Shown one piece after another: positions 1,548 through 50,281 of a stretch of 64,000 bases of DNA. How positions within the stretch are numbered: position 1 is the stretch's first letter; every line of letters starts with the position of its first letter. The DNA is from Heterodontus francisci (taxonomy: Eukaryota): NCBI RefSeq assembly GCF_036365525.1, contig NC_090371.1, positions 120,294,388 through 120,358,387 on the forward strand. The letters are read 5' to 3'. The notes beneath the pieces were generated by a model. The model was not told the DNA's origin, ran no database searches, and worked only from the letters and a program-made list of their open reading frames with translations. Both the position numbers and the translations under genes were made by a program.

Positions 1548-1660
1548 GTTTGTATTCTAGCACACACAACCACAAGAAAACCTGTATTGAAATCTTTTCT
1601 CATTTTAACTGGGATCAATTTGACTTCCCACTTCCAATTTCTCGTTTGTCTGTGAGTTCG

Positions 1661-1680
1661 ATCCGGGACAGTAACCCCTA
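1661..1680 (-). other. Degenerate tRNA-Pro primer-binding site
   Basis: + strand atccgggacagtaaccccta resembles the reverse complement of TGGGGGCTCGTCCGGGAT and lies next to the LTR end. Confidence 0.55.
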
Positions 1681-1686
1681 CATTTC

Positions 1687-2628: not shown

Positions 2629-4888
2629 ATGTACTCTGGGTGGGGGACTTCAATGTCCATCATCAAGAGTAGCTCGATAGCACTACTACTGACTGAGCAG
2701 GCCGAGTCTTAAAGGACATAGCTTCTAGACTGGGTCTGCAGCAGGTGGTGAGGGAACCAACAAGAGGGAAAAACCTACTTGACCTTCTCCTCACCAATCT
2801 ACCTGTCGCAAATGCATCTGTCCATGACAGTATTGGCAGGAGTGACCGTTGCACAGTCTTTGTGGAGACGAAGTCTTGTCTTCACAGTGAGGGTACCCAC
2901 CATTGTGTTGTGCGAGACCGTGCTAAATGGGAAAGGTTTCGAACAGATCTAGCATCTCAAAACTGGGCATCCATGAGGTGGTGTGGGCAATCAGCAGCAG
3001 CAGAATTATATTCAACCACAATCTGTAACCTCATGGCCCGGCAGATTCCCCAACCTACCATTACCATCAAGCCAGGAGACCAACCCTGGTTCAATAAAGA
3101 GTGCAGGAGGACATGCCAGGTGCAGCACCAAGCATACTAAAAATGAGGTGTCAGCCTGGTGAAGCTACAACACAGGACAACTTGCATGCCAAACAGTGGA
3201 CGGGGCTAACAATCCCACAACCAACAAATCAGATCTAAGCTCTGCAGTCCTGCCACATCCAGCTGTGAATGGTGGTGGACAATTAAAAAACTGACAGGAG
3301 GAGGAAGCTCCACAAACATCGCCATCCTCAATGATGGGGGAGCCCAGCACATCAATGCAAAAGACAAGGCCAAAGCATTTGCAACCATTTTCAGCCAGAA
3401 GTGCCGAGTTGATGATCCATCTCAACCTCCTCCTGAGGTCCCCAGCAACACAGATGCCAGTCTTCAGCCAATCCGATTCACTCCACATAGTATCAAGAAA
3501 AGGCTGAAGGCACTGGATACTGCAAAGGCTATGTGGTAAATTGTCCAGGACAAATCCGACCCGGCCAATTACCGCCCTATCAGTAAAGTGATGGAAAGGG
3601 TCAATGATAGTGCTATCAAGCAGCACTTGCTGAACAATAACCTGCTCACTGACACTCAGTTTGGGTTCCACCAGGGCCACTCAGCTCCTGACCTCATTAC
3701 AGCCTTGGTCCAAACACAGATAAAAGAGCTGAACTCCAGAGGTGAAGTGAGAGTGACTGCCCTTGACATCAAGGTAGCATTTGACTAAGTATGGCATCAA
3801 GGAACCCTTGCAAAACTGGTGTCAATGGGAATCAGGGGGAAAACTCTACCTAGCACAAAGGCAAATGGTTGTGGTTGTTGGAGGTCAATCATCTCAGTCC
3901 CAGGACATCATTGCAGGAGTTCCTCAGGGTAGTGTCCTAGGCCCAACCATTTTCAGCTGCTTCATTAATAACCATCCTTCAATCATAAGGTCAAAAGTGG
4001 GGATGTTCGCTGATGATTGCACAATGTTCAGCACCATTAGCGGCTCCTCAGATACTGAAGCAGCCCATGTCCATATGCAGAAAGACTTGGACAACATCCA
4101 GGCTCTGGTTGTTAGGTGGCAAGTAACATATACGCCACACAAGTGCTCGGCAATGACCATCTCCAACAAGAGAGAATCTAACCATCTCCCCTTGACATTC
4201 AATGGCAATACCATCGATGAATCCCCCACTACCAACATCCTGGGGGTTACCATTGACCAGAAACTGAACTGGACTAGCTACATAAATACTGTGCCTTCAA
4301 GAGCAGGTCAGAGGTTGGGAATTCTGCAGCGTGTAACTCACCTCCTGACTCTCCAATGCCTGTCCACCATCTACAAGGCACAAGTCAGGAGTGTGATAGA
4401 ATACTCTCCACTTGTCTGGATGGGTACAGCTCCAACAACACCATCCAGGACAAAGCAGTCCACTTGATTGGCACCCCATTCATCATCTTCAACATTCAAT
4501 CCCTCCACCACCGATGCACAGTGGCAGCAGTGTGTACCATCTACAAGATACACTGCAGCAACGCACCAAGGCTCCTTTGACAGCACCTTCCAAACCCACA
4601 ACCTCTACCACCTAGAAGGACAAGGGCAGAAGATGCATGGGAACACCACCACCTGCAAGTTCCCCTCTAAGTCACACACCATCCTGACTTGGAACTTTAT
4701 CACCATTCCTTCACTGTTGCTGGTCAAAATCCTGGAACTCCCTTCCTAACAGCACTGTTGGTGCACCTACACCCCAAGGATGCAGCGGTTCAAGAAGGCA
4801 ACTCACTACCACCTTCTCAAGGGCAATTAGGGATTGGTAATAAATGCTGGCATAGCCAGCGATGCCCACATCCCCCGAACGAATAAAA
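2629..4888 (+). mobile_element. CR1-group LINE (same family as 13606-16895), 5'-truncated and degraded
   Basis: APE motif WVGDFNVHH, RT motifs GVPQGSVLGP and MFADD, shared 3' tail caagggcaattagggat...cccacatccc; internal deletion near 3535. Confidence 0.9.
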
Positions 4889-10410: not shown

Positions 10411-10544
10411 TATTCATTTAGCTTCCCCTTAAGTGTATCTATGCTACTTGTTTCAACTGTTCCATGTGGTAGTAAGTTCCAAATTTAACCACTCTCTCTT
10501 GCCTGAAATCCTCATTGGATTTATCAGTGACTATCTTATCACAG

Positions 10545-12407
10545 GGAGAATGCTGTCACTGAGACTGCCCTCAATGCAGCCCAGCCTCTACCAGTCATGG
10601 ATGAGCTGGACATACAGCCAACCAAATCGGAACTCAGTGATGCCATTGATTCTCTAGCCAGCGGAAAAGCCCCTGAAATTACCCCTGAAATAATCAAGAG
10701 TGCCAAGCCTGCTATACTCTCAGCACTACATGAACTGCTATGCCTGGGCTGGGACGAGGGAGCAGTACCCCAGGACATGCGCAATGCCAATATCATCACC
10801 CTCTATAAAAACAAAGGTGACCGCGGTGACTGCAACAACTACCGTGGAATCTCCCTGCTCAGCATAGTGGGGAAAGTCTTTGCTCGAGTCGCTCTGAACA
10901 GGCTCCAGAAGCTGGCCGAGCGCGTCTACCCTGAGGCACAGTGTGGTTTTCGTGCAGAGAGATCGACCATTGACATGCTGTTCTCCCTTCGTCAGATACA
11001 GGAGAAATGCCGTGAACAACAGATGCCCCTCTACATTGCTTTCATTGATCTCACCAAAGCTTTTGACCTCGTCAGCAGACGTGGTCTCTTCAGACTACTA
11101 GAAACGATCGGATGTCCACCAAAGCTACTAAGTATCATCACCTCATTCCATGACAATATGAAAGGCACAATTCAACATGGTGGCTCCTCATCAGAGCCCT
11201 TTCCTATCCTGAGTGGTGTGAAACAGGGCTGTGTTCTCGCACCCACACTTTTTGGGATTTTCTTCTCCCTGCTGCTTTCACATGCGTTCAAATCCTCTGA
11301 AGAAGGAATTTTCCTCCACACAAGATCAGGGGGCAGGTTGTTCAACCTTGCCCGTCTAAGAGCGAAGTCCAAAGTACGGAAAGTCCTCATCAGAGAACTC
11401 CTCTTTGCTGACGATGCTGCTTTAACATCTCACACTGAAGAGTGCCTGCAGAGTCTCATCGACAGGTTTGCGGCTGCCTGCAATGAATTTGGCCTAACCA
11501 TCAGCCTCAAGAAAACGAACATCATGGGGCAGGACGTCAGAAATGCTCCATCCATCAATATTGGCGACCACGCTCTGGAAGTGGTTCAAGAGTTCACCTA
11601 CCTAGGCTCAACTATCACCAGTAACCTGTCTCTAGATGCAGAAATCAACAAGCGCATGGGAAAGGCTTCCACTGCTATGTCCAGACTGGCCAAGAGAGTG
11701 TGGGAAAATGGCGCACTGACACGGAACACAAAAGTCCGAGTGTATCAGGCCTGTGTCCTCAGTACCTTGCTCTACGGCAGCGAGGCCTGGACAACGTATG
11801 CCAGCCAAGAGCGACGTCTCAATTCATTCCATCTTCGCTGCCTTCGGAGAATACTTGGCATCAGGTGGCAGGACTATATCTCCAACACAGAAGTCCTTGA
11901 AGCGGCCAACACCCCCAGCTTATACACACTACTGAGTCAGCGGCGCTTGAGACGGCTTGGCCATGTGAGCCGCATGGAAGATGGCAGGATCCCCAAAGAC
12001 ACATTGTACAGCGAGCTCGCCACTGGTATCAGACCCACCGGCCGTCCATGTCTCCGCTATAAAGACGTCTGCAAACGCGACATGAAATCGTGTGACATTG
12101 ATCACAAGTCGTGGGAGTCAGTTGCCAGCATTCGCCAGAGCTGGCGGGCAGCCATAAAGACAGGGCTAAATTGTGGCGAGTCGAAGAGACTTAGTAGTTG
12201 GCAGGAAAAAAGACAGAGGCGCAAGGGGAGAGCCAACTGTGCAACAGCCCGGACAAACAAATTTCTCTGCAGCACCTGTGGAAGAGCCTGTCACTCCAGA
12301 ATTGGCCTTTATAGCCACTCCAGGCGCTGCTTCACAAACCACTGACCACCTCCAGGAGCGTATCCATTGTCTCTCGAGATAAGGAGGCCCAAAAGAAAAA
12401 AAAAAGA
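10545..12407 (+). mobile_element. Young RTE-clade LINE, 5'-truncated, open RT ORF 10597-12345 (582 aa)
   Basis: GVKQGCVLAP, LLFADD, C-terminal CxxC..H zinc finger; 12-bp TSD atcttatcacag at 10533-10544 and 12408-12419. Confidence 0.95.
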
Positions 12408-13214: not shown

Positions 13215-13605
13215 TGTGACGGAAATCACACCTTCCAAAATGAGACATATTAATTTCGTCATATGGAACATTATTTTTGAACTGTTACTGGACTTAAAAT
13301 AACTTGTTTAAAAAGACCACAACTGTGGCTGAAAACATGGCTGCACATTTACATTCTAAAAGACAGTTGCATGAAGAAGACAATGGGAGTATTCCCTGAT
13401 TCAATTAGCCAGATGGATTTTATCCACAGTGATGATCAAGAGACATTGAGAGTAATTGAGTCAGCATCCCAAAGCCCCCTGTGAGTGTCTGGTGAGCTTG
13501 AAGTAATCCACAAATCTCACAGGCAAGGCTGCTGTAAACAAGGCGTTGGTCATGTGACTACTGGCCAACCTGGAGTTAATTGAATTGAGCTCACAGAACA
13601 GTTTG

Positions 13606-16600
13606 GGTAGGCGGTGGTGTAGTGGTATTATCACTGGACTAGTAACCCAGAGACCCAGGGTATTTCTCTGGGGACATGGGTTCAAATCCCACCACAGCAG
13701 AAGGTGGAATTTGATATTTAATTAATAAATCTGGAATTAAAAAAAGCGAGTCTAATGATGGCCATGAAACCATTGTCGATTGTTGTAAAAACCCATCTGG
13801 TTCACTAATGTCCTTGAAGGAAGGAAATCTGCTGTCCTTACCTGGTCTGGCCTACATGTGACTCCAGACCCACAGCAATGTGGTTAACTCTTACATGCCC
13901 TCTGAAATGGCCTATCAAGCCACTCAGTTGTATCTAACCACTAGCAAGTCTATAAAAAGCAATGAAATTGGATGGACCATCCGGCATCGACCGAGGCACC
14001 GGAAACGACAACGGCAAACCCAGCCCTGTCGACCCTGCAAAGTCCTCCTTACTAACATCTGGGGGCTTGTGCCAAAGTTGGGAGAGCTGTCCCACAGACT
14101 AGTCAAGCAACAGCCTGACGTAGTCATACTCAAGAATCATACCTTGCAGATAATGTCCCAGACACTACCATCACCATCCCTGGGTATGTCCTCTCCCACC
14201 GGCAGGACAGACCCACCAAAGGTGGTGGCACAGTGCTATACAGTAGGGAGGGAGTTCCCCTGGGAGTCCTCAGCATCAACTCCGGACCCCATGAAGTCTC
14301 ATGGCATCAGGTCAAACATAGGCAAGGTAACCTCCTACTGATTACCACCTACTGCCCTCCCTCAGCTGATGACTCAATACTCCTCCATGTTGAACACCAC
14401 TTGGAGGAAGCACTGAGGGTGGCAAGGGCACAAAATGCGCTCTGGGTGGGGGACTTCAATGTCCATCACCAAGAGTGGCTCAGTAGCACCACTACTGACC
14501 GAGCTGGCCGAGTCCTAAAGGACATAGCTGCTAGACTGGGTCTGCGGCAGGTGGTGGGGGAACTAACACGAGGGAAAAACATACTTGACCTCATCCTCAC
14601 CAATCTGCCTGCCGCAGATGCTTCTGTCCATGACAGTATTGGTAGGAATGACCGCCGCACAGTACTTGTGGAGACGAAGTCCCACCTTCACATTGAGGAT
14701 ACCGTCCATCGTGTTGTGTGGCACTATCACCGTGCTAAATGGAATAGATTTCGAACAGATCTAGCAATGCAAAACTGGGCATCCATGAGGTGCTGTGGGC
14801 CATCAGCAGCAGCAGAATTGTACTCATCCACAATCTGTAACCTCATGGTCCGCATATCCCCCACTCTACCATTACCATCAAGCCAGGAGACCAACCCTGG
14901 TTCAATGAAGAGTGCAGGAGGGTATGCCAGGAGCAGCACCAGGCATACCTCAAAATGAGGTGTCAACCTGGTGAAGCTACAACCCAGGACTACTTGCATG
15001 CCAAACTGTGTAAGCAGCATGCGATAGACAGAGCTAAGTGATCCCATAACCAACGGAACAGATCTAAACTCTGCAGTCCTGCCACATCCAGCCGTAAATG
15101 GTGGTGGACAATTAAACAACTAACTGGAGGAGGTGGCTCCACAAATATCCCCATCCTCAATGATGGGGGAGCCCAGCACATCAGTGCAAAAGATAAGGCT
15201 GAAGCATTTGCAACAATCTTCAGCCAGAAGTGCCGAGTTGATGATCCATCTCTGCCTCCTCCTGAAATCCCCAGCATCACAGATGCCAGACGTCAACCAA
15301 TTCGATTCACTCCACGTGATATCAAGAAACGACTGAAGGCACTGGATACTGCAAAAGCTATGGGCCCTGACAATATTCCGGCAATAGTACTGAAGACCTG
15401 TGTTCCAGAACTTGCCGCGCCCCCAGCCAAGCTGTTCCAGTACAGCTACAACACTGGCATCTACCCGGCAATGTGGAAAATTGCCCAGGTATGTCCTGTA
15501 CACAAAAAGCAGGACAAGTCCAACCCGGCCAATTACCGCCCCATCAGCCTACTCTCAATCATCAGTAAAGTGATGGAAGGTGTCATCAACAGTGCCATCA
15601 AGCAGTATTTGCCTAGCAATAACCTGCTCAGTGACGCTCAGTTTGGGTTCCGCCAGGGCCACTCAGCCTCTGACCTCATTACAGCCTTGGTTCAAACATG
15701 GACAAAAGAGCTGAACTCAAGAGCTGAGGTGAGAGTGACTGCCCTTGACATAAAGGCAGCATTTGACCGAGTATGGCATCAAGGAGCCCAAGCAAAACCG
15801 AGGTCAATGGGAATCAGGGGGAAAACCCTCCACTGGCTGGAGTCGTACCTAGCGCAAAGGAAGATGGTTGTGATTGTTGGAGGTCAATCATCTCAGCTCC
15901 AGGACATCACTGCAGGAGTTCCTTGGGGTAGTGTCCCGGGCCCAACCATCTTCAGCTGCTTCATCAATAACCATCCTTCAATCATAAGGTCAGAAGTGGG
16001 GATGTTCGCTGATGATTGCACAATGTTCAGCACCATTGGTGACTCCTCAGATACTGAAGCAGTCCGTGTAGAAATGCAGCAAGACCTGGACGATATCCAG
16101 GCTTGGGCTGATAAGTGGCAAGTAACATTCGCACCACACAAGTGCCAGGCAATGACCATCTCCAACAAAAGAGAATCTAACCATCACCCCTTGACATTCA
16201 ACGGCATTACCATTGCTGAATCCCCCACTATCAACATCCTAGGGGCTACCATTGACCAGAAACTGAACTGGAGTAGCCATATAAATACTGTGGCTACAAG
16301 AGCAGGTCAGAGGCTAGGAATCCTGAGGCGAGTAACTCACCTCCTGGCTCCCCAAAGCCTGTCCACCATCTACAAGGCACAAGTCAGGAATACTCTCCAC
16401 TTGCCTGGATGGGTGCAGCTCCAACAACACTCAAGAAGCTCGACACCATCCAGGACAAAGCAGCCCGCTTGATTGGCACACCATCTACTAACATTCACTC
16501 CCTCCACCACCGACGCACAGTAGCAGCAGTGTGTACCATCTACAAGATGCACTGCAGCAATGCAACAAGGCTCCTTAGACAGCACCTTCCAAACCTGCGA

Positions 16601-16895
16601 CCTCTACCAACTAGAAGGACAAGGGCAGCAAATACATGGGAATACCACCACCTACAAGTTCCCCTCCAAGTCACACACGATCCTGGCTTGGAACTATATC
16701 GTCGTTCCTTCACTGTCGCTGGGTCAAAATCCTGGAACTCCCTTCCTAACAGCACTGTGGGTCTACCTACCCCAAATGGACTGCAGCGGTTCATGAAGGC
16801 AGCTCACCACCACCTTCTCAAGGGCAATTAGGGATGGGCAATAAATGCTGGCATAGCTGGTGACGCCCACATCCCATGAATGAATTAAAAAAAAA
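13606..16895 (+). mobile_element. Full-length compact CR1-group LINE (L2/Crack/Daphne-like, clade unresolved) with a tRNA-derived head and a single APE-RT reading frame carrying a few frameshifts
   Basis: Inserted cleanly into an LTR (cagtttg | LINE | aaaagagactgcaac); ORF pieces 13880-14341, 14233-14958, 15360-16472 and 16409-16831; A-tail. Confidence 0.92.
13615..13689 (+). promoter_or_regulatory. RNA polymerase III type-2 internal promoter (A box 13615-13625, B box 13679-13689)
   Basis: TGGTGTAGTGG and GGTTCAAATCC within a tRNA-like head at the LINE 5' end. Confidence 0.8.
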
Positions 16896-19800
16896 GAGAC
16901 TGCAACTGAACTTGAAGAAGCGAGCATCTTTCTCTCTCACACGTAAAGTTCCAGGGACCCACAGAAGTAACTCAAGCCTCAATACAGAAGACCAGCGAAA
17001 CAAGTTTGAAAAAGTGGCCAACTGAGATTTGGACTCGTCTGTTGCAAAGTAAACTAACGGGAAAAGCCCATGAGGTTTATTCCATGTTGCCAGATGAGAG
17101 TTCATGCAATTATGAACTGACAAAAAATGCTATCCTCGGTATATATGAGTTAGTACCAGAAGCCTACCGCCAGAAGTTTAGAAACCTCAAAAAGCAAGCT
17201 GATCAAACTTACTTGGAGTTTGAGGGGAGTAAGCAGCTGGCTTTTGACCAGTGGTTGAGGGGTCTTAAAGTGCAGCCCAGTTATGAAAACCTCAGAAAGG
17301 TAATTTTGCTAGAGGAATTTAAAAACTCTCTCCCACTCTCCATCAAGACACATGTGGAGGAACAAAAAGTTCATCGAGTGAAGCAAGCCACAGTTCTGGC
17401 TGATGAGTTTGCTCTAATATACAAGTCGGTTTCCCAGGGGAAAAACTTTCCTAGTCATCTCCACAAATCTGAAAAGGACAAAGGGTGGGAAGGTGATAGA
17501 AGCCCAAGCATTCCTGGGAGAGAAAGAAAAGCCGGAGACACTGGGGGCCCTCCTCCAGCCCAAAAGGAAGGTGCTGTAAGTATGAGTGAGACCTGGAGAC
17601 CTGTGTGCTTCCGTTATAATAAGTCAGGTCATCTAAGAGCTGACTGCTGGAAACTATGGGGAAAACCTGTAGAATTAATCAGGGCACATCCGCCTAGTGC
17701 AGGAGAAAGGACCCTGATGGAAAGCACAGCTGAACAAGCTGTGGCTTTAACTGCAGCAGTTGTAAGGCCAGAAAACATACTGCTATAGGTGCAGGTACAT
17801 TTAATAGGGTTCCTGAAGGTTATCAGGATTTTGTGTCTGAAGGGAGTGTAACCCTATACCCCTCGAGTGGGGCAAGCAAGCCCACAGTAATCCTCAGGGA
17901 CACAGAGGCCACCAGATCCCTTTTACTGGGAAAAGGCCTGATATTTCCCCCAGAGAGTGTAGTAAATAACAGAATGGTGGTAAATGGTATTGGAGGGCAG
18001 TGTACACCTGTACCTTTACATCGGGTGCACTTGGAGTGGTGACCTAGTTTCGGGACCGGTGACCGTAGGGATTGTTCCTAGTTTACCTGTGGACAGCGTT
18101 GACCTGCTCCTAGGTAATGATCTGGCGGGCGCGAAGGTGGTAGCCTCCCCAGTAGTGATAGAGAGACCGCAGGAGGTAAGAGACAGTGTCGTGGCAGGAA
18201 ATGGTCCCCTCCTGTTTCCCTACATGTCTAGTGAATCGGGCCATGATCAAACCAGCTGCCCCCAGAGGAGACTGAATTGGCACTGCAGACAGATGACAAT
18301 GAGGTCTGTCTGTCTGAGACTTTCTCTGGAAAGTTAAAGGACCCAGGGAATGAATTAAATAAATCTTCCCCAGCTAAGGCTCAGTGAACTGACCCAGTAC
18401 TGAGAGAGTTAGCACAGGCTGCCCAGTCTGAAATTGAAGCAGAGGGAGTCCCTGATTGCTACTATTTAAAGAATGAGGCACTGATGAGGAAATGGAGTTC
18501 TCCTCACAGACCTGAGAGCAAGGAGTGGACAGTAGTTCACCAGTTAATGTTGCCGCAGAGGTACTGGAGAGAAATATTAAGAATGTTAAGATTACAGTGG
18601 CTGTACATGTTGGTATACAAAAAGCCAAAGTCCGCATAAGACAGCAGTTTGACGGGCCAAAACTCCACAAAGATATGGTGGAGTACCGTAGGAGTTGCCA
18701 CATGTGCCCAGTTAAGGGGAAACCCCAACCTACAGTGAAATCTGCACCCCTAAGTCCTGTACCAGCGTTTGGAGGACCCTCTAGCAGAGGACTGTCGACT
18801 GTAAGGGACCCCTGATGAGAACAAAAGGTGACAGACAGGCACAAGGCTGGCAAGAGGTTAAAGAGGAAAGGGGAAAAAGGGACAAAAAGGACAGGTTAAA
18901 GGAGATCCGGGAGGTTTCCCAAATGGAAACCCCTACTGTCTGGTCAGCCAACCCCAAAATGTTGGGAAAATTAGACACACATCCTCTATGTAAATGCTGA
19001 CACTAGAAGCACCCCACCGGAGTTGCTAACAGCATTTACAGAAACCTGCAGGGGCAAAGAGAGTCCTCAGGAAGGCAGAGAAACTGTGAGGGTGATGCCT
19101 CATCTAGTCGAAGTGCTTCAGGGGAGTGCAGTAGAATCTGGACAAATACCTGCATGCAGGAATGTTCCAGAGGACAAAGCGTAGATTAGCAAAGAATCCA
19201 CCCCCACAGTCTGGAAAAAAAGGAACCAACCATGCTCTAAAGTGAAAACCACTTGCCTGACTCATCAGGGCACTGAAAGAGAGATCAGAGTGGATCCACC
19301 CATGCTGACTCCCATAAACAGAACTCCAAACCAGGGTTATTAAATCTCACCCTTACCCACCACCCCCCCTTCCCACCTCCCGCAGATCTCAACAGGAACA
19401 AAGGCGCGCTAGGCAGTCATGGAAATGCGCAAACTGCAAACCTCCCCAAAAATCACATGTTTACTTAGATGCCCATTCCCAACATATTGCAGGCTGGTAG
19501 TGAAGAAATTTCAAACCCCTTTAGGCAACACATAACTATCTCAGACCCACCTCAAGGGAAAAGGGGCAGTTTAAAACAGCACTGCTACAAAGGAAATACA
19601 GGCTGTAACAATTTTTAGGATTTCTGAATGAATGAGAGTGAATGAGAGAAATACATGTCTGTTTTCCTGTACCTTCTCTTCTTTCTATTTTTATCATGAA
19701 ATGCTCTCCTAATAGTGCATTTCATTCTGCTGGATGTGGAGGTGTGACAGAAACCACACCTTCCAAAATGAGGCATATTAATTTCATCATAAGAACATTA

Positions 19801-22729: not shown

Positions 22730-24420
22730 TTTGGCAGGGAGTGTTGTAACATCCATTCAGGGAGGGCAAAGGATTTGGTGACCAGTCCACACAAAGGCTA
22801 CATCAGGTATAGGAGCTGCAGCTGCAGTGCCTCAGGGTCTGCAGCATGACAAGAAGATGGAGTACAGGCTGCAGAGAGGGAAAGCTCTAGGTGATGCCCT
22901 CTGCCGACTTGGATCAGACTCCTCCATGCTCCTTGACAGAGACAGGAAGCTATCTGGCAGGCCAGTCAATGCACCCAGCATCTCGGTGTGCATCCTCATC
23001 AGCATTCTTCCATATGCCACTCCATTGAAGTCCTCATCTATAGCAGAGCTCATTTGCAACCTCACCCTTTCATGAGCTGACACAAACTATCATTCCCCCT
23101 GGCCTGGCCGCAGCCCACCCCTGTCCAGTGACTCACCAGGTGTTGATCTCGACTCGATACTAGCTTCTAAGGTAGGTGCAGTGCCAGTGTCTGAGCTGGC
23201 GGCTCTGTATGTCAGATCATGTGACAGGGCATCTTCATCAGCGATCTGATGCAGCTCCCTAGGGCTACTGTAGCTGGAGAGCTGGTAGCTCTTGGATGGG
23301 GAAAAGTAAAAGAGAAAGGAAAAGTTCTTGTGAGGGAAGGGGAGGGGGGGTGGGAATGGAAAGCAAGAGGTCCATGGTCGCACCATCAGCTGTTTGCACA
23401 ACATGTCAGATAGCAGGATGAGGGTGTGGTGGGAGTTGCGAAAGTGTATAAGGCAGGAGCATATCATGCCGAACATATCATCATATGGTTCTCAGTGATA
23501 CCAGATGCCATGGGTTCAGTCTCAGCTAGTCCCATGATAAGGAGAATAATTTCCTCTGTAGGGCTCAGGAGATGTGGCTATCTTTGTCCCTCACCGGTTC
23601 TGCTCTACTCCCTCCTGTTGTAAGCCACCTTATACTGCAAGAGAAAGGGAGGAATGTCAGTGATTGTGTTGCACTGGGTTTGGTAATGTGCCTTCCATGG
23701 ATGAATAGCTGGAGGGATGTGGAGGCAGCAAGAGGCGTGTGTGAGTCTGGCATCATTGGAATGTGTGTGAGACTGAGGTGGAGTATCTAGATGTTAGGCC
23801 TAAGTGTCAGGGACTGTTGATGGCTGAGTGATGAGGGTGTGATGCATTGAGCAGTGTGAGAGGTTGATGTTGGAGTGGGTAGGAGTTGTGTTTTGAAGAT
23901 GCATTCACTGACCTTAATTATTGCATGAATTCACTGAACTTCTTGTGGTATCACTGCCAGGTCCTCAAGCCCAGACTCCAGGCATTGACTTAAAAGCAAA
24001 ATACTGCAGATGCTGGAAATCTGAAACACCAACAAGAAATGCCGGAAATACTCAGCAGGTCTGGCAGCATCTGTGGAGAGAGAAGCAGAGTTAACGTTTC
24101 AGGTCAGTTCTGATGAAAGGTCACTGACCTGAAACGTTAACACTGCTTCTCTCTCCACAGATGCCGCCAGACCTGCTGAATATTTCCAGCATTTTTTGTT
24201 TGTGTTCCAGGCATTGACTTCCCTGGCCACCTGTTCCCATTCCCTTCGAAGGCTTGCCTTGAGGGCCTCCTGGTCCCCTGCAGGAACATGACCTCTCTCC
24301 TCCTGTCAATCTCCATCACTGAGGCCTCCAGCACTGCATTTGTGATCTTTGGAGCCCGGTCTCTTCCCTGGTGCTCCATTTCTGCAGCTCCTACTTGCAG
24401 TCAGTGTTAATACAGGCAGT
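22730..24420 (-). mobile_element. Harbinger/PIF-type transposon remnant (Myb/SANT-like ORF, multi-exon, degraded)
   Basis: From 24379: RAPKITNAVLEASVMEIDRRREVMF, then after a frameshift WEQVAREVNA..RTWQ*YHKKF; later KVAYNRRE*SRTG near 23620. Confidence 0.65.
23992..24205. mobile_element. Penelope-derived palindromic mini-element with a hammerhead-like core
   Basis: About 75-bp inverted arms around ctgatga-aaggtcactgacct-gaaa; 15-bp TSD tccaggcattgactt at 23977-23991 and 24206-24220. Confidence 0.8.
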
Positions 24421-25680: not shown

Positions 25681-26030
25681 TTTTATTTATTATTCGTTTG
25701 TGGGATGTGGGTGTCGCTGGCTAGGCCAGCATTTAGTGCCCATCCCTAATTGACCTTGAACTGAGTGGCTTGCTAGGCCATTTCAGAGGGCATTTTAAGA
25801 GCCAACCACATTGCTATGGGTCTGGAGTCACACATAGGCCAGACCAGGTAAGAACAGCAGATTTCCTTCTCTAAAGGAAATTAGTGAACCAGATTGGTTC
25901 AACAATCGGCAATGGTTTCATGGTCGTTATTAGACTAGCGTTTCTAATTCCAGATTTATTAATTGAATTCAAATTTCACCATCTGCCCTGTGGGATTTGA
26001 ACCCATGTCCCCAGAGCATTGGCCTGGGCT
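25681..26030 (-). mobile_element. tRNA-headed SINE sharing both ends with the 13606 LINE
   Basis: The reverse complement has the B box gggttcaaatccc, the core gtgactccagaccc..aagccactcagtt and the LINE 3' tail. Confidence 0.88.
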
Positions 26031-26811
26031 CTGCTGGAAATTAAATTACTGTTCTGGTTAATAACACATGGTTAAATCACCACTGTGGACCACAATCACA
26101 ATCTTTAATGAATCCTTATTCAAATTACTTCAATTGTCACTTATAAACTCCACATTGAACATCTTTTTTTAATGAACAGGTTTGTTCCAAATCAAACAGA
26201 AGAAAGTTGTTTGCAGTTTTAGTGCTTTATAAAGCTGATATCCACCCAGTGCCAACATGTTTAGCAACTGAAAAGAAAAATAATTTGCTGCTCTTTAACT
26301 CAGAACAATGCACAGTAAAACCAGTGGTTTGAATGGAAATGGGGACACCCCAGGGATCATTGTCTCATAGTCCTTCTATGCTTAGGAGCCAGTGAGGTTA
26401 ATGTAATTTAACTATTGGGAGATGAGTTTGCTCCACTGCATGCCCCAGCAAAAGTCAGCAGTCGGATGTTTACACAGATTGAGCAGAATGCATTGGGTGA
26501 TCAGAAGCAAATGGAGCTAGCACAGGAGAAGCTGTAAACATCTGGCCCAAAAGTCAGTTTATCCATTCTGAGGTGTTGAAGATCTAGACCTCAGGGTCCC
26601 TATTTTTAAAAGAGTTATACTTTCTTAGCATCAAAGATTACTGCAGTCATTGGAGCAACTGCCTGTGCGCAGCAGATAGTGTGGAGGAGTGCACAGCCTG
26701 CATATATGATGTGCTGATGTGGAAAATAGAAATTATATTGTGCAACACATAGCATGGACATCTACAGTGGAGTCCGCCATCTGGAGGCCCTAAAGCCAAT
26801 TTTACCATCCT

Positions 26812-27520
26812 TGATAGGTTGATAGGTAAATTGGCTATTATAAATTGCCCCTAGTATAGGTAGGTGGTAGGGGAAAGTGGGGATGTGGTAGGAATATGGG
26901 ATTAGTGTAGGGTTAGTATAAATGGTATTTGAGGCGGCCAACATCCCCAGCTTATACACACTACTGAGTCAGCGGCGCTTGAGATGGCTTGGCCATGTGA
27001 GCCGCATGGAAGATGGCAGGATCCCCAAAGACACATTGTACAGCGAGCTCGCCACTGGTATCAGACCCATCGGCCGTCCATGTCTCCACTTTAAAGACGT
27101 CTGCAAACGCGACATGAAATCCTGAGACATTGATCACAAGTCGTGGGAGTCAGTTGCCAGCGTTCGCCAGAGCTGGCGGACAGCCATAAAGGCGGGGCTA
27201 AAGTGTGGCGAGTCGAAGAGACTTAGCAGTTGGCAGGAAAAAAGACAGAGGCGCAAGGGAAGAGCCAACTGTGTAACAGCCCCGACAATCAAATTTTTCT
27301 GCAGCACCTGTGGAAGAGCCTGTCACTCTAGAATTGGCCTTTATAGCCACTCCAGGCGCTGCTCCACACACCACTCACCACCTCCAGGCGCTTACGCATT
27401 GTCTCTCGAGATAAGGAGGCCCAAAAGAAAAGTATAAATGGGTGGTTGATGGTCGGCACAGACTCGGTGGGCCGAAGGGCCTGTTTCAGTGCTGTATCTC
27501 TAAATAAAAAATAATAAAAA
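26812..27520 (+). mobile_element. HE1-like SINE 3' part interrupted by an RTE 3' fragment (26931-27430)
   Basis: RTE piece nearly identical to 11900-12395; 11-bp TSD agtataaatgg at 26915-26925 and 27431-27441; CR1-type SINE tail ggccgaagggcctgtttc. Confidence 0.88.
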
Positions 27521-30733: not shown

Positions 30734-30879
30734 TATGCAAGAATAACCAATGTAAGGGAAAACAACAACTTATACTGCATGAGAAGAGAGCGCTGATTGG
30801 TTGGCAAGTGAACTCTGATTGGTAGAGGCGTTGCCATGAAGAATGCGCCAGTTTACAGTGACTGGCAGTTACTTGCCAC

Positions 30880-31265
30880 TTATCAACCCAAGCCTGTATG
30901 TTGTCCTAGTCTTGCTGCATATGGACATGGGCTGATTCAGTAACTGGGGAGTTGCAAATGTTAATGAACATCGTGCAATCATCAGCGAACATCCCCACTT
31001 CGGACTGAGATGATTGAAGGATGGTTATTAATGAAGCAGCTGAAGATGATTGGGCCTAGGACACTACTCTGAGGAACTCCTGCAGTGATGTCCTGGGACT
31101 GAGATTATTGATCTCCAACAACCACAACCATCTTCCTTTGTGTTAGGTATGACTCCAACCAGTGGAGAGCTTTCCCCCTAATTCCCATTAACTCCAGTTT
31201 TGCGAGGGCTCCTTGATGCCATGCTCGGTCAAATGCTGCCTTGATGGGGCAGTCACTCTCACCTC
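30880..31265 (-). mobile_element. RT fragment of the 13606-type LINE
   Basis: Reverse complement matches about 15730-16120. Confidence 0.8.
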
Positions 31266-31849
31266 ATGTTGGTGCCTCGGAACTTTTCATTATATCAAAG
31301 GTTCATTATAAATACAAGTTGTTGTTGTTGCTGAAACCTCCCACACACAGAAATCTCTTCTAGAAAGCAGAGGCAATTTTAAATTGCTACAGTGCTTTGC
31401 AAATGGAAAAGAAAAATATAATATAAAAATGCTTATAAATTAAAACAGGATGGATGCTAGGTTTGTCAATGTAGGTAATTTTTCTCCCTCTCCCTTCTAC
31501 CAGGATTTTATGAAACATATGCACTGATTTTGTAACAATCCCCTCATGAACTAAATGCAAATGTCACCTTCACAGGTAATGCTGCTGTTACTTATGAATT
31601 AAAACTTCATTTTGCTTGTAACATATATCAATTATTTGTGCTAAAGGACAAGAAATAAATCTTTACACTACTGAGTTACACAGTGGAAATATTATGGGGT
31701 ACTATTGTGTACTCCTGATCTCTATAACAAATGGAGCAATAGGAAGAATCCAAAGCTCTAAGTTACACATCCTCTGCGTTGCTTGGTATCTATGGCTTGC
31801 TGTCTCAATGTGACAGAGGCAATTGCCCTGAGATAAGGCAATTACTCTG

Positions 31850-36169: not shown

Positions 36170-36345
36170 TGTCCGGCTCTCGGATGTTATGAAACTTTGC
36201 CGCAGTTGTTTTGTAACGGTTGCACTCGGCCCGCCCCCCTTCCCGCTCTCATCCAATGGTCGCTGCGATCTGCGGTCACGTGCGAGTGGCGGCTGGTTTG
36301 TCTGCAGCCGGCGGCTGTGAGTGCGCATGCGCCTGCCAGTCGAAC
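36170..36345 (+). promoter_or_regulatory. CpG-island promoter of the LONRF gene
   Basis: GC box about 36230-36239, CCAAT 36253-36257, E-box CACGTG 36277-36282, NRF1-type TGCGCATGCGC 36322-36332; CpG-rich to about 36900. Confidence 0.75.
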
Positions 36346-36922
36346 ATGTCGGCTGATCCGGACGGAATGACTGACGGCGGCGCTGAAGCGGCGGGCAACA
36401 AACCTCGGGACAGCCCAGGGCTGCCGCTGATGGGCCGGCACCGCCTGTCCCCACAACCGGCGGCGGCGCTGGAGCAGTGCTGGCTGGTCGGGAGCTGCGG
36501 GGCTCTGCAGCCCGAGCAGCTGGGGAGCCTAGTACAGTGTCTCCTGCACCGCATCAATAGGCGAGGCGGCGGGCAGCCGGGGGAGGGCCCCGGCACCCGG
36601 CTGCCCGAGGCCGACAGCCCGCTCAGGGGAGGAGGCCTCCTGGACTGTGGCGGCTGCCGAGAGCTGCTGTCTGAGCCCGTCACCTTGCGGTGCGGTCACA
36701 CTTGGTGCCGGCGCTGCCTCCGGCGGAGTCCCCGATGCCCGGGTTGCGGGGAGGCGGCCGCCGGCACTCAGTCTCTGCGCTCCAATGTCGTCCTCAGCCA
36801 CCTGTTGCCCAAGTGGTTCCCGGCCGAGGCGCGACGTATTCGGAACAAAGTGAAACTGGAGGAGCTTCTGGCCGAGTGTCGCTTCCCGGAGGCGTTAACC
36901 CTGCTCGAGCAACTGGAATTGA
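36346..36922 (+). CDS. LONRF1: LONRF1-like coding exon 1 (RING finger 1, start of TPR)
   Basis: ATG at 36346; CGGCRELLSEPVTLRCGHTWCRRC..CPGC and SNVVLSHLLPKWFP; donor a|gtaagt, phase 1. Paralog identity (LONRF1 versus lonrf1-like) and the start codon are uncertain. Confidence 0.88.
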
Positions 36923-37484
36923 GTAAGTGTCGGGACGGGAGAGGAGGAGGAGGGGGGGGGGTGGGAGCTGCTTTTCTGTTTGAGATTCAGAGATTTCACT
37001 CCCTTCCCTGGGTTTGACGAGTTCTGTTGTGTAACGAAGCGCTACATACACAGGGTTGTATAAGACTGGGAGGGGCACGTGTCTGAGCAATGATTCAGCC
37101 TCTTTAGGGGATTGATTAGTGACGGGTTTTTTTTAAGTGTTTACATTTTGGTTTTATTCAGGTCTTAGATGGTTATACTGCAACCGTATCAGCTTTGTTA
37201 CCCATGAGCTTACAGTCCTCCCAGACTGCAACTGTCTTTGTTATGCAAGCACTTCTAGTTTTTTTGTGCGAAGTTTTATTCATAGTCGCTTTCAGAAGCT
37301 GTCGCTGCAGTTCTGTCTTCTACAGAGTCCTGTTTATTTGCCACGACGTTTCTTGCAGCCCTTTCATTTTACAAGATAGATGTGTGATTAAATAGGGCAG
37401 AGTGGATCTTGTAGCGGATAGGCATCAAATATAATTGTGTTAATTAAAGTATTAAATATGTAGTGTATGTTTTCAAAATCAGTA

Positions 37485-39151: not shown

Positions 39152-39896
39152 CTTCTTTGGCCTCCTTATCTCGAGAGACAATGTGTAAGCGCCTGGAGGT
39201 GGTCATTGGTGTGTGGAGCAGCGCCTGGAGTGGCTATAAAGGCCAATTCTAGAGTGACAGGCTCTTGCACAGGTGCTGCAGAAAAATTTGTTTGTCGGGG
39301 CTGTTACACAGTTGACTCTTCCCTTGCGCCTCTGTCTTTTTTCCTGCCAACTGCTAAGTCTCTTCGACTCGCCACACTTTAGCCCCGCCTTTATGGCTGT
39401 CCGCCAGCTCTGGCGAACGCTGGCAACTGACTCCCACGACTTGTGATCAATGTCACAGGATTTCATGTCACGTTTGCAGACGTCTTTAAAGCGGAGACAT
39501 TGACGGCCGATGGGGCTGATACCAGTGGCGAGCTCGCTGTACAATGTGTCTTTGGGGATCCTACCATCTTCCATGTGGCTCACATGGCCAAGTCATCTCA
39601 AGCGCCGCTGACTCAGTAGTGTGTATAAGCTGGGGATGTTGGCCGCCTCGAGGACTTCTGTGTTGGAGATACGGTCCTGCCACCTGATGCCAAGTATTCT
39701 CCGGAGGCAGCGAAGATGGAATGAATTGAGACGTCGCTCTTGGCTGACATACGTTGTCCAGGCCTTGCTGCCATAGAGCAAGGTACTGAGGACACAGGCT
39801 TGATACACTCGGACTTTTGTGTTCCGTGTCAGTGCGCCATTTTCCCACACTTGGCCAGTCTGGACATAGCAGTGGAAGCCTTTCCCATGCGCTTGT
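39152..39896 (-). mobile_element. Young RTE 3' fragment in intron 1
   Basis: Near-identical to the reverse complement of about 11650-12395. Confidence 0.93.
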
Positions 39897-42949: not shown

Positions 42950-44026
42950 CAAAAGCAAAGTACTGTGCATGCTGGAAATCTGAAATAAAAACAGAAAATG
43001 CTGGAATTACATAGCAGGTCTGGTAGCATCTGTGGAGAGAAAAGCAGAGTTAATGTTTCAGGTCTTTGACCTTTTCATCCGAACTGGGGAAAAGTTAGAA
43101 ATAGGTTTTGAGCAAATTAAAGGGGGGGAGTTGAGAAAAAAGAACAAAAGGGAAGGTCTGTGATAGGGTGAAGGGCAGGACAGATTAATTGACAAGTTTC
43201 ATGGTGCTAGGCCAAGCGGGGTCGTAATGGGACAAAAAGCAAAAGATGCGTCCACAGGAGGTGTGACTGACTGACAGGATGGCTCCTGTCCAAATGCACA
43301 ATAAAGGAAATGAGAGGAAAATCAAACCAGCAAAGAAACACAAAACAAAATTATTGAACTCAAATGTTGAGTCTGGAAGTCTGTAAAGTGCCCAGTTCAA
43401 AGATGAGGGGCTTGTGTTGAGCTTCACTGGAACACTAGCAGTCCAAGGACAGAAAGGTCAGTGGCAGCAAGTTGGAGAATTAAAATGAATGGCGACTTGA
43501 AGCTCAGGGTCAAGCTTACGCACTGAATGTTGATATGAAAAGTGGTCATCCAGTCTGTTTGCCCGCACCCCCCCCACCGCCAAGTGTGGTTGTCTTTACA
43601 TTTTTTGGTTCTTCCACTGCAAAGGGCACTGATTTTTAAGGTGGTTGGAAAAAAAAGTAACTGATATGAGGCAAAACTTTTTTATGCAGTAGTGAGTGAT
43701 TAGAATCTAGATTGCACTGTCTGAGAAGTGTGGTGGAGGAAGATTCAATCGAGGCCTACAGAAGAGAACTGTATAATTTCTGAAGAAAAAATTGCAGGGC
43801 TACAGGACAAAGGCATGGGAATGGGACTAGGTGAATTGTTCTTGTAGAGAGTTGGCACAGACGCATTGGGCCACATGGCCTCCTGTGTTGTAACCATTCT
43901 GATTCTATTACATTTCTAACTTTTCCCAATTCTGATGAAAGGTCACAGACCTGAAATGTTAACTCTTTTTCCACAGATGCTGCCAGACCTGCTGAGTATT
44001 TCCAGCATTTTCTGTTTTTATTTCAG
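42950..44026 (-). mobile_element. Penelope-like element remnant with inverted terminal repeats; CR1 tail (43620-43905) inside
   Basis: 42950-43100 and 43910-44026 are inverted copies; degraded GIY-YIG C-terminus (HFNS..LGTL..EFNNF) on the minus strand at 43345-43555. Confidence 0.75.
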
Positions 44027-44194
44027 GATTGCATGGTTAAGTTGAAATTGTAATCTGGGCAAAGTTACCATAAAGCTGATCATTTGTTCAAGTTCACATG
44101 TAAATGTGTCTTGTACTGCATTTAAAACAACTGTGTCCATGTTAATTCACCCCCTAGGATGATGGGAAGTTTTCATTCATAATTGATACAACGC

Positions 44195-45490
44195 GGTGAG
44201 GTGAGAGTTACTGCCCTTGATATCAAGGCAGCATTTGAGTGAGTGTGGCAAAAAGGAGTCCTAGCAAAATTGAAATCAGGGGGGAAACTCCACTGACTGG
44301 AGTCATACATAGGAAGTCACTGACTGGAGTCATACATCCACAAAGGAAGGTAGTTTTGGTTTTTGGAGGCCAAACATCTAAGCCCTAGGACATCGCTGTA
44401 GGAGTTCCTCAGGGTAGTGTACTAAGCCCAAACATCTTCAGCTGCTGCATCAATGGCCTTCCTTCAGTCAGAAGTGGGGGTGTTTGCTGATGATTGCACA
44501 GTGTTCAGTACCTTTCGTGACTCCTCAGATACTGAAACAGTCCATGTCCACATGCAGCAAGACCTGGACAACATTCAGGCTTGGGCTGATAAGTGGCAAA
44601 TAACATTCGCACCACACAATTGCCAGGCAATGACCATATCCAACAAGAGAGAATCTAACCGTCTCCCCATGAAATTCAACAGCATTATAATCGCTGAATT
44701 CTCCCACCATCAACATCCTGGGGGTTACCATTGACCAAAACCTAACTGGTCCAGCCCTATAAATACTGTGGCTGCAAGAGCAGGTCAGAGATCAGAAAAG
44801 TAACTCACTTCCTGACTCCCCAAAGCTTGTCCACCATCTAGAAGGCAAAAGTCAGGAATGTGATGGTAATTTATAGAAATTTACAGCACAGAAGCAGGCC
44901 ATTCACCCTATGTTTGTGCACTGATATGCTCTTGAAATTACCTGGGGCTGAATTTTCCCAGCCCCTTGGAGATGGGTTTGGAAGCGGGGACGGCAGGGAA
45001 AGTACTAGGAAGCCTCTCCAATTGTGTGGAGGGTTCACACCATCCAGAACAAAGTGGTTTGTTTAATCAGCACCCCGATTCACCACCCTAAACATTCATT
45101 GCCTCCACCACACTGGCGCAGAGTGGCAGAAGTATGTATCATCTACAAGATGCACTGCAGAAACTTGCCCAGCCTCCTTCAACTGCACCTTTCAAATCCA
45201 TGACCTTTACCACCTAGAAGGACAAGGGCAGTAGATGTATGGAGACATATCAACTGCCAATCCCCCAAAGCCACACACCATCCTGACTTGGAACTATATT
45301 GCCATTCCATCACTGTCGCTGGGTCAAAATCCTGGAACTCCCTTCCTAACAGCACTGTGGGTGTCCCTACACCACATGGAGTGCAGCGGTTCAAGAAAGC
45401 ACTCACCACCACCTCGAGGGCAATTACAGATGGGCAACAAATGCTGGCCTTGCCAGTGACACACTCAATCCATGAAAGAGTTTAAAAAAC
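44195..45490 (+). mobile_element. Old 5'-truncated copy of the 13606-type LINE with a small insertion (about 44868-45065)
   Basis: GVFADDCTVF..WQITFAPHNC and the shared 3' tail. Confidence 0.85.
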
Positions 45491-47111
45491 TAACACATTT
45501 GACTTTTTAATTCTTTTTGGGTGACGGGCAGTTAAATGCATGACTCTCTGGGTTTTACCATGCCAAGGATTGTTGCTAAAAGTCTAACCACAGTTTTTCC
45601 TTAAATCTCATATCCCCATTAGGTTTCATGATTCAGTTGGTCACATTTTCTTCATGTAAAGAAGTTAGCTAATGCATGATTTAATTAGTCTGCAAATGCT
45701 AAAAACAAGACCAGTGATGGTAATTCAGTTATGACTCAAACTCAAATTGTGGATGGGGTTCAATGCTGTGTATTGAAAGATTATTATGTGATGGTAAATT
45801 AAGGGGACAAATATGCTGTCTGTTTAAAGAAAGGATCTTAATATCCATTCAACCTTTAAGAACTGAACAGGTTTCTCCTTCCATTTTTTTTTGTCTCAAT
45901 TTAAATGGAATGTTTATGACTTGAGTGGCACTGGGAGGATTTATTGAAGTCATGATGTAAAGCAGTTGAGTTGATCATTTACCCCACTATTTGTTTTCTA
46001 GTTTGTTGCTTCAGGTATCTAGGCACTAAATTCCTTCCAGCCACCTTCCTAATATTTATACTTGATTTAGATAAATACTTCATAGATTAAAAATTAATTT
46101 TAATATCCATGTAACTTTTTAAAGATACTGTTTATAATGGCACAAATTTTCCATGTGTTGATACTGTAACATTTATGCCCATATGTAGATTGTTCAAATT
46201 CAAATAGGGGCAAAATAATCCAATAAACATTAGAAAAATATTACATGGTGACTGAATTGGAGTGGAAGCATACTGTGGCAGATAGGATCTGGGTTCAGAG
46301 GCATGAGTCTTGCAAGTTCCTGACCTTCGCTGCAGTGTCAGGGAAAGGGACCATCCAAAGGCCAGGCATCTCTGCAAGGAAAAAAAATGAACATATGTGA
46401 TTCCTCATATCCTACACTTGTGTACCTCCTAAGGCATTTAGAAAGGCTTGGCAATAGATTACCTCTTGTTTCACCAGGCAGACAACAGATGAAAAAAAAA
46501 AGTTTTGGTGGTGGGGGGAGGGGTTTGGTGTCGTGGAAAAGGAAGAAAACGTTTTATATGAGTAGCATGAGGCTTATTTAAAAATGCACTCCCATTTCTG
46601 GACTAACCCAGAAATTGAGCTCATATTGTGAAATTGAATTTGTAGTTCTTGGTCTTGCAGCAGAAAATTACTATGAAAACTATTGAGTTGTCATTTTTTA
46701 AAAAAGACTAATGTTCTTCCAGAGAGGGAACCTGCCATCCTTAGCTAGTCTGGGCTACATGTTGTGGTTGGCTTTTACTGCCCTGAGGGAACTAGTTATG
46801 GATAATTACTGGCTGCCAGTAATGCCCACATTCCAAGTACAAGCTATTAAAAAGTTCAAGTAAAACCTAAATTAATATACCTAAGCATTTTGTGCTGTGT
46901 GGTGAATGAGATAACAGCAAAACTAAAAGTGAGTCTGAGCTTTCTATTCCATTGTGATTGTGTATGCTGCAATATTCAGTGATCAGTTTTCACGGTTTAA
47001 CGTGATCTTCAGGATTCAATCTTTCCAACGTTTTTGCCAATATTGATTTTGTGCTAATACATTCAATTCCTCTCAGCTATTTAATACTAACGAAATCTTG
47101 TTGTGAATCAG

Positions 47112-48888: not shown

Positions 48889-50281
48889 TTTATTTATTCT
48901 TTCATGGGATGTGGGCATTGCTGGCAAGGCCAGCATTTGTTGCCCATCCCTAATTGCCCTTGACAACTGAATGGCTTGCTTGGCCATTTCAGAGGGCAGT
49001 TAAGAGTCAACTTCATTGCTGTGGGTCTGGAGTCACATGTAGGCCAGTTGGCAGGCACTAAATAGTAGAGTGCCATAAGGATCTGTGCTGGGGCCACAGT
49101 TATTTACAATTTATATTAATCACTTAGATGAAGAGACAGAGTAATGTATCTAAGTTTGCTGATGATACAAAGGTAGGTGGAAAGATAAGCTGTGGGAAGG
49201 GCACAGTCTGCAAAGACAGGTTAAGAGAGTGGGCAACAAGATTGCAGATGGAGTATAATGTAGGGAAGTGTGAAGTTATGCACTTTGGTCGTAAGAATAG
49301 AAAAGCAGAATATTTTTTGAAAAGTGTGAAACTGGTCCATGTTCAGAGAGACTTGGGTGTGCTTGTACATGGAATGCAGAAAGTTAACATGCAGCTACAG
49401 CAAGCAATTAGGAAGTCAAATGGAATGTCGGCCTTTATTGCAAGGGGATTGGAGTACAGGACTAAGGAAGCGTTGCTACAATCGTACAGGGTTTTGGTGA
49501 GACCACATCTGGAATACTATGGGAAGTTTCAGTCTCCACATTTAAGAAAGGATGTTCTTGCATTGGAAGCAGTGCAGCAAAGGTTCACAAGATTGGTCCC
49601 TGGAATGAGGGGCTTGTCCTATGAGAGACTAAGTAAATTGGGGCTATATTCTCTGGAGTTTAGAAGGATGCTAGGCGATCTCATTGAAGCATACAAGATT
49701 CTGAAGGGGCTGGATAGGGTAATCACAGAGATTATTTCTGCTGGTCTGGGAATCTAAAACACGGGGGCACAGTCTCAGGATAAGGGACCAATCATTTAGG
49801 ACTGAGATGAGGAGAAATTACGTCACTCAAAGGGTTGTGAATCTTTGGAATTCTCTACCCCAGAGGGTAGTGGATGCTCCATTGTTGAATACATTTAAGG
49901 CCTGGATAAACAGATTTTTGGTGTCTCAGGATCAAGGGATATGACGAGCAGGCGGGAAAGTGGAGTTGAATCCTAAGATCAGCCATGATGGTTTTGAATG
50001 GTGGAGCAGGCTCGATGAGCCATATCATCTGCTGCTGCTCCTATTTCTTGTGTTCTTGTGTAAAGACAGCAGATTTCCTTCCCTGAAGGACATTAATGAA
50101 CCTGTTGGGCTTTTATGACAGTTGACAGTCTCAATAGTGGTGCATGAAACTAGCTTTCAATTCCAGATTATTAATTAATTGAATGTATTAATTTTAAATT
50201 CCACCAGCTACCGTGGTGAGATTTTAGCCTGGGCCTCTAGATTACTAGTCCAGTGACATTACCACTGCACCACTGTGTCCC
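48889..50281 (-). mobile_element. tRNA-headed SINE (13606-LINE related) interrupted by a + strand CR1 fragment (about 49056-50060)
   Basis: SINE tail and core at 48889-49055 resume at 50061 (taaagacagcagatttccttcc) and run to the head ccactgcaccac; CR1 ORF 49128-49757. Confidence 0.85.

Follow-up and report, generated by a model that had tools for sequence, protein, structure and literature searches.

The 64,000-nt stretch of Heterodontus francisci DNA analysed here (hereafter the window) raises a question of ancestry. It holds three copies of a short interspersed element of about 400 nt, a non-coding SINE with a LINE-derived 3′ tail, in which the two ends of an autonomous LINE family, 5′ and 3′, are joined and no foreign part is present. 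How did a SINE come to consist of the two ends of a LINE, which of the two elements came first, and which RNA polymerase transcribes the LINE?

The composition of the SINE is apparent from pairwise alignment. Specifically, copy 1 (25682-26033, minus strand) matches LINE positions 13648-13929 with 86.6% identity over 283 columns (E 1e-89) and positions 16818-16895 with 83.3% identity over 78 columns (E 2e-18), and these two LINE-derived parts abut at 25759. The initial annotation had described the SINE as the 5′ end of the LINE followed by its last 70 or so nucleotides with the stop codon, and the alignments bear this out; indeed, the LINE stop codon at 16829-16831 falls within the tail that both elements share. 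Copy 1, which had been placed at 25681-26030, is real but cut short before the A box: it lacks the first ~42 nt of the element and keeps the B box. Copy 2 (48889-50273, minus strand), previously drawn from 48889 to 50281, has the same make-up but is not continuous, as a CR1-type fragment of ~1 kb at about 49059-50060, encoding a piece of a CR1-type reverse transcriptase (RT), splits it into a 5′ part (50273-50060, 68.6% identity by BLAST) and a 3′ part (49047-48889) with 90.6% identity to the LINE 5′ part and 84.6% to the tail. This copy carries the other of two head subtypes and keeps the A box only. The third copy, reported as a fragment near 46700-46850, likewise exists (alignment score 37.3, against 11.4 ± 1.9 and a maximum of 18.7 in 300 shuffles), extends over about 46622-46853 (plus strand), is heavily decayed and apparently has an earlier joint into the tail. 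As candidate target-site duplications, the SINE flanks show only 5-6-nt matches that are not flush with the element ends.

The initial annotation named a shared 5′ part much more diverged than the shared tail as a finding that would speak against its proposal. This is not the pattern observed: the LINE and SINE copy 1 are identical at 245 of 274 positions (89%) in the 5′ part, the last 83 nt of that part agree at 89-92% among the LINE and both SINE copies, and the tail agrees at 85-87%. The SINE is composed of the head, body and tail of the elasmobranch Zenon LINE described below.

The LINE is represented by a full-length, Zenon-type copy of ~3.29 kb at 13606-16891 (plus strand, as are all of its parts). 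It opens with a tRNA-like head (13606-13700) that has an A box at 13615-13625, a B box from 13679 and a long variable-arm stem. ARAGORN calls a tRNA-Thr(AGT) at 13611-13699, its sole call in the whole window, and both boxes are intact in a scan with consensus motifs. The top Rfam match to the head is tRNA-Sec at 19.6 bits, under the gathering score of 47; over 13400-14100 no family reached its gathering score and no ribozyme family was among the entries. The head is followed by a 5′ UTR segment of ~230 nt (13701-13929), the body, which is common to LINE and SINE, and then by a LINE-only spacer of ~110 nt (13930-14038). One open reading frame (ORF) at 14039-16831 joins an APE endonuclease to an RT (PF14529, E 7e-12; PF00078, E 1e-34; PF03372 also matched). 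The endonuclease is preceded by ~430 nt only, and ORF1 is absent. Comparison with protein P0002 by tblastn aligns the LINE ORF in four pieces with changing frames, which indicates three frame breaks in this copy. The tail shared with the SINE (16818-16891) comprises the last codons, the stop codon, a short UTR and an A-run that ends at about 16891-16895, part of which may be the A4 of the target itself. Folding of the 5′ 455 nt gives a z score of -2.5, and the hairpin that the tail can form (z 0.08) is not above shuffles.

Judged by its sequence, this element is the elasmobranch Zenon (CR1-Zenon) of PMC13343379; the two agree in the single ORF, the A-ending tail, the length of about 3.29 kb and the first 400 nt. 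The main text of that paper contains neither 'tRNA' nor 'promoter' and has 'SINE' once, in a reference; the head, the derived SINE and the depletion of T-runs discussed below are undescribed for elasmobranch Zenon in that text. CR1-Zenon-like repeats are also named in the available part of a whale-shark preprint (10.1101/443036). A FastTree phylogeny of 38 RT pieces, which included no named Zenon reference and from which the metagenome relative L004 was dropped and L053 left out, separates the LINE from the CR1 elements of the window and groups it, in a 0.91 clade, with two Armadillidium proteins and a set of unnamed single-ORF relatives; another relative, L001, falls in the same broad clade.

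The insertion site indicates that the head entered together with the coding part. In a self-comparison of the window, an empty paralogous site at 2150-2330 (minus strand) runs uninterrupted across 13605/16892, and this LTR-type paralogue sets the insertion bounds at 13605/13606 and ~16891. Because the border coincides with the head, head and coding part entered as one 3.29-kb unit. No target-site duplication was seen against the empty paralogue, and no leftover SINE tail was found 3′ of the LINE at the insertion. The LTR-type host repeat itself (16916-18800, plus strand; paralogue at 1-2640, minus strand) occurs at least twice in the window, and its gag-like frame carries a SCAN domain (PF02023, E 1e-12).

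Is the head a regular part of this LINE or an accident of one copy? Only one copy within the window reaches the 5′ end, and three other pieces stop short: a 5′-truncated copy at 2628-4888 (plus strand, 88.6% to 14434-16889), a more diverged 5′-truncated copy at 44195-45489 (plus strand, 84.9%) and an internal fragment at 30868-31266 (minus strand, 87.6%). Such a distribution would fit a one-off chimera, formed when a single 5′-truncated LINE became fused with a SINE or landed within one. Published consensuses refute this explanation. Supplementary Table 2 of PMC13343379 (2026) holds 10 Zenon consensuses, and the first 400 nt of each were compared with the window. All seven elasmobranch consensuses begin with head and body and then enter the spacer, as judged by eye beyond the junction motif; this 13-nt motif is exact in six of them, all Zenon rows, and differs by one letter in the seventh. 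The seven carry the codes CarCar, HypSab, RhiTyp, ScyCan and SquAca-1/2/3, which makes five species codes, one of them a ray. We take these to stand for white shark, stingray, whale shark, catshark and spiny dogfish, respectively. Two other motifs from the window, in the 3′ tail and at the endonuclease start, have no exact match in the supplement file of PMC13343379.

Gene models and contig depth agree with the consensuses. With the translated 13862-14134 segment as query, HMMER returned seven matches, the best being the whale-shark gene model P0241, which runs from body through junction into endonuclease with 72% identity over query positions 16-90; models P0242 and P0245 likewise start in body-derived frames. 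One further match, P0246, was set aside as a low-complexity repeat, and a word-index protein search across the junction returned no match where HMMER did. In contigs from four runs, representing four coded organisms, the depth of the LINE-only spacer is ~19- to 88-fold over that of flank bins. Spacer depth is similar in order of magnitude to that of the next bin, at 1.06M versus 0.83M in run X1, 1.58M versus 3.56M in X5, 0.25M versus 0.54M in X7 and 30k versus 26k in X15, where depths are contig values rather than copy numbers and counting was incomplete in three of the runs. None of the loose ends listed (24 of 20,040) falls at 13930-13970. Thus the elasmobranch Zenon LINE family normally starts, at its 5′ end, with the tRNA-like head and its A and B boxes, and the restriction to one LINE copy that the initial annotation had named as contrary evidence does not hold. 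With seven of seven consensuses headed, the gene models, the high spacer depth and the lack of a leftover SINE tail, we regard a one-off chimera as vanishingly improbable. Elsewhere, a protein search of viral contigs for other copies confirmed none of 50 candidates, DNA motif searches of viral and of genome contigs found 0, and motif searches in the supplements of PMC4824008 (without its file 1) and PMC5804259 gave no match.

Outside the elasmobranchs the head was not found. It is absent by eye from the first 400 nt of the two hagfish consensuses and the one coelacanth Zenon consensus. A metagenome scan yielded 80 distant LINE relatives (27-49% identity), many of them too short or cut at the 5′ end; none belongs to the LINE family itself, none has a match to the head (best E 0.95), and no tRNA was found in the 49 of 80 that were scanned. 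L001 (41% identity), which has a single ORF, an A tail and ~950 nt upstream of the ORF, is without the head. Because the head is missing from the hagfish and coelacanth consensuses and from the relatives tested, it appears to be an acquisition of the elasmobranch lineage. The 5′ region of L001 has a ~60-nt tandem duplication at 385-482, and a similar stretch is visible by eye in EptBur_Zenon-2; this stretch is possibly an ancestral Zenon 5′ element that was replaced by the tRNA head.

An acquired head leaves two orders of events to be weighed. In one, the Zenon lineage would have gained its tRNA-derived head at the base of the shark and ray lineages or earlier, and a head-bearing LINE would then have lost ~2.9 kb of internal sequence to give the SINE, probably through a template jump during reverse transcription. 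In the other, a tRNA-SINE with a Zenon tail existed first and donated its head and body to the LINE by a template switch at the body/tail border. The absence of the head from hagfish and coelacanth Zenon and from L001 is what the SINE-first order would lead one to expect, as the head must have been acquired; tRNA-SINEs with Zenon tails do exist in bivalves and butterflies according to the portions of PMC6685494 and PMC11481361 at hand; and short shared letters can be seen by eye at the consensus joint. However, this order requires that the switch strike the body/tail border by chance. A deletion needs no such coincidence, since the SINE body ends exactly where LINE-only sequence starts.

Joints between body and tail in the contigs bear further on this choice. 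The joint of the SINE is seen in all four runs, and 14 of the 15 joints listed (of 20,799 in the four runs) lead from 13885-13930 to 16815-16820, where left ends lie mostly near 13928-13930 and part of their spread is noise from the alignment of diverged copies. In one joint, from 13937 to 16798 (a single row in run X15, depth 651), LINE-only letters are retained at either side, and this joint must for that reason derive from the LINE; the SINE-first order leaves it unexplained without further exchange. High-depth joints also lie inside the ORF (14319-15136 and 15850-16289, run X5), which suggests that the Zenon LINE yields other amplified deletion forms besides the SINE.

The head subtypes point the same way. 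The head of SINE copy 1 is nearer the window LINE (161 of 187 positions) than SINE copy 2 (118 of 165), a comparison of three sequences with no root, although in the 3′ body the three lie at equal distances from one another (89-92%). The head of SINE copy 2 matches a motif of the Squalus consensus with 1 mismatch in 15, where the window LINE has 3; this motif test is not significant on its own, as 26 of 100 shuffles give two matches. The Squalus-type subtype also appears by eye, among the 24 loose ends listed, as ends at 13778-13780 in three runs. By sequence, both head subtypes occur on LINEs and on SINEs, so that SINE copies seem to follow different LINE head subtypes, which the SINE-first order would again explain only by further exchange. 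We therefore rate it improbable and consider it very probable that the Zenon lineage acquired the head at the root of the sharks and rays or earlier, and that an internal deletion of the headed LINE then produced the SINE. Such a deletion origin, or sequence exchange, probably happened more than once. The initial annotation had offered an internal-deletion derivative and a captured head as alternatives; given a head absent outside elasmobranchs and a deletion-type joint, the two are most likely successive steps.

Related arrangements have been described, although each differs from the one seen here. As far as the excerpted texts of PMC5786205 and PMC7245038 go, Bov-A/Bov-tA, RIME/ingi, NARTc/L1Tc, Vingi and the R2 SIDEs resemble the Zenon-derived SINE in joining the 5′ and 3′ parts of an autonomous LINE and in being copied in trans. 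In the bipartite model of these papers, however, the parent is a Pol II LINE and the head is added after the deletion, whereas the shark Zenon parent is already headed; the sources of ORF-less bipartite forms named in the relevant part of PMC5786205 are RTE, Ingi, Vingi and R2 only, and not Zenon. ZenoSINE (PMC6685494) and the bivalve HCD-SINEs (PMC11481361) share with the present system mobilization by a Zenon LINE through a common 3′ end, but in the sections of these papers at hand the reported homology to Zenon is confined to the tail (35-61 bp in bivalves). The TRIMp3 elements Cassandra, Helenus and Ajax, as treated in the excerpt of PMC10886601, are likewise non-SINE retrotransposons with a Pol III promoter derived from a small RNA; they are short, non-autonomous LTR elements, whereas the Zenon LINE is protein-coding, non-LTR and of autonomous type.

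Among the tRNA-headed SINEs of cartilaginous fishes, SacSINE1 (a DeuSINE with an L2 tail), SINE2-1_CM (CORE) and HE1 (a V-SINE) are set apart from the present SINE by their descriptions, which in the extracts of PMC5499810, PMC2746220, PMC3747384 and PMC5753468 list L2-2_CM or HER1 as partners rather than Zenon. Identity with DeuSINE/SacSINE1 was dropped on a motif test: the two Deu motifs shown in fig. S4 of PMC7245038 match neither the SINE nor the 5′ part of the LINE and are at chance level elsewhere in the window. One motif each for the UCON3 and Meta domains gave 0 matches with three mismatches allowed, so that the body matches none of these motif sets. The open literature, as distinct from subscription papers, Repbase and Dfam, yielded no account of a tRNA-headed LINE or of the SINE at issue. 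The Zenon LINE whose 5′ end is of SINE type and the SINE made of its two ends are real, family-wide and apparently unremarked.

Does the head serve the LINE itself as a promoter? Runs of at least four T terminate Pol III. The LINE copy, at 3286 nt, has no such run (T4) on its sense strand, the ORF included, and 17 on the antisense strand; the first T4 3′ of the LINE lies at 17242. This zero comes from one copy, and T-runs in the published consensuses can be judged on the first 400 nt at most. Shuffling of bases predicts 4.8 T4 runs (P 0.004) and 23.3 runs of three (T3) where 8 are observed. Synonymous resampling of 823 codons predicts 3.9 T4 runs (P 0.011) and 18.7 T3 runs against 5 observed (0 of 1000 resamplings), and A4 and C4 runs are normal under this control. 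A dinucleotide-preserving shuffle predicts 1.8 T4 runs and is not significant (P 0.13), because TT itself is depleted (o/e 0.70). Weak terminators number 0 against 1.4 expected, which is also not significant.

Other elements differ from the LINE in this respect. In the window, each of the four CR1 regions tested, and likewise the RTE and the LTR region, contains 4-16 T4 runs. The T3 ratio is 0.27 for the LINE, and the minimum is 0.61 among relatives whose ORF reaches at least 300 aa (68 of 80); each of the 29 relatives with an ORF of at least 800 aa has at least three T4 runs. Two short, GC-rich relatives, L004 and L038, are also free of T4. The closest metagenome relative, L053 (1-2146, 49% identity), has the T3 ratio of 0.61 and a TTT/TTC count of 2/11; it is T-poor yet contains T4 runs, and it lacks its 5′ end. 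Within the window, the copy at 2628-4888 is depleted for T3 only (9 versus 17.4 expected; T4 2 versus 3.7), and the copy at 44195-45489 shows no depletion (T3 15 versus 12.0; T4 3 versus 2.8). Four of the five T4 runs in these older copies align to sites of the young copy that are not T4. Finally, none of nine population-majority changes to T, among 40 of 581 rows, would give a run above 2.

A sense strand purged of T-runs is what would be expected if Pol III made the whole LINE RNA, and we lean slightly toward the reading in which the head functions as the LINE's promoter and RNA polymerase III would produce the entire 3.3-kb RNA. The term 'Pol III LINE' used in the initial annotation thus gains indirect support from T-run avoidance. 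The same anatomy and the same deletion origin could instead be combined with a translated LINE RNA made by Pol II, with Pol III serving the short derivative only. Pol II would then start in the head or body, in the spacer or by read-through from upstream, and T-run avoidance would reflect a codon or RNA-stability bias. This alternative conforms to the standard view, in which Pol II transcribes non-LTR retrotransposons (PMC10886601 and PMC5786205, in excerpt) and SINEs are Pol III units of limited length (PMC10886601); a translated, uncapped Pol III RNA of 3.3 kb indeed conflicts with general statements in the excerpted PMC10886601. It is also favored by the outcome of the dinucleotide shuffle, by the older copy that lacks depletion and by the general preference for C-ending codons in the LINE ORF. 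Nevertheless, the depletion survives control for third positions, spares A4 and C4 and is the strongest among 69 sequences, and the full-length copy has both boxes intact, which makes transcription of the coding RNA by Pol II rather unlikely in our estimation.

Transcription of the LINE by Pol III would bear on how its protein is made. The endonuclease frame of the LINE copy has no methionine over its first ~240 residues. An AUG at 13962 in the spacer, which opens a 46-codon overlapping frame (13962-14102), is kept in six of the seven elasmobranch consensuses (by eye) and is out of frame with the endonuclease. The in-frame AUGs at 13895 and 13907, which are open in the window copy, were rejected as the family start, as a TAG follows them in six of the seven consensuses (by eye). 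These sequences suggest that the LINE ORF would start either through a frameshift from the 13962 frame or at a non-AUG codon. Since no in-frame AUG lies near the endonuclease start, non-standard translation of an uncapped RNA would be expected. The whale-shark gene models P0242 and P0244 join the 13962-14102 frame to the endonuclease, and this join is possibly a programmed frameshift or an artefact of the gene caller.

Viewed as a whole, a headed Zenon LINE, a SINE formed from it by deletion and a Pol III promoter for the LINE make up the explanation that we find reasonably probable. The SINE would retain both cis-elements, namely the promoter and the RT-recognition tail, and the LINE protein would copy it in trans; Pol III would transcribe the whole LINE RNA from the head, and this uncapped RNA would be translated by a non-standard route. 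To the broadest version we assign even chances: an autonomous coding retrotransposon, Pol III-driven from end to end and abundant in sharks and rays, that would keep shedding SINEs by deletion and whose uncapped RNA, lacking a conventional start, would be translated into a protein of ~930 residues. If true, it would erase the polymerase-based border between LINEs and SINEs and provide a direct model for the origin of SINE bodies. Confirmed Pol III transcription of a coding RNA would be categorically new, and an abundant headed family makes the questions of whether a Pol III-made, translated mRNA exists in nature and by what means it is translated directly testable. The deletion would lead from a LINE to a tRNA-SINE in one step and would explain where one SINE body came from, a matter that is called enigmatic in the consulted portion of PMC5786205. 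In practice, shark repeat libraries will split or mislabel the headed Zenon family and its SINE.

Several other features of the window deserve mention. An RTE-type ORF at 10531-12345 (plus strand) is open over 604 codons, and near-identical 3′ pieces lie at 26929-27431 and 39153-39896; their 94-97% identity indicates that this RTE family is young. Another short interspersed repeat, which has inverted matches inside it, occurs at 23991-24216, 42951-43102, 43912-44031 and 52495-52624. Lastly, a GC-rich open frame at 36217-37017 (plus strand) encodes a RING-type Cys/His pattern and is probably the first exon of a host gene.
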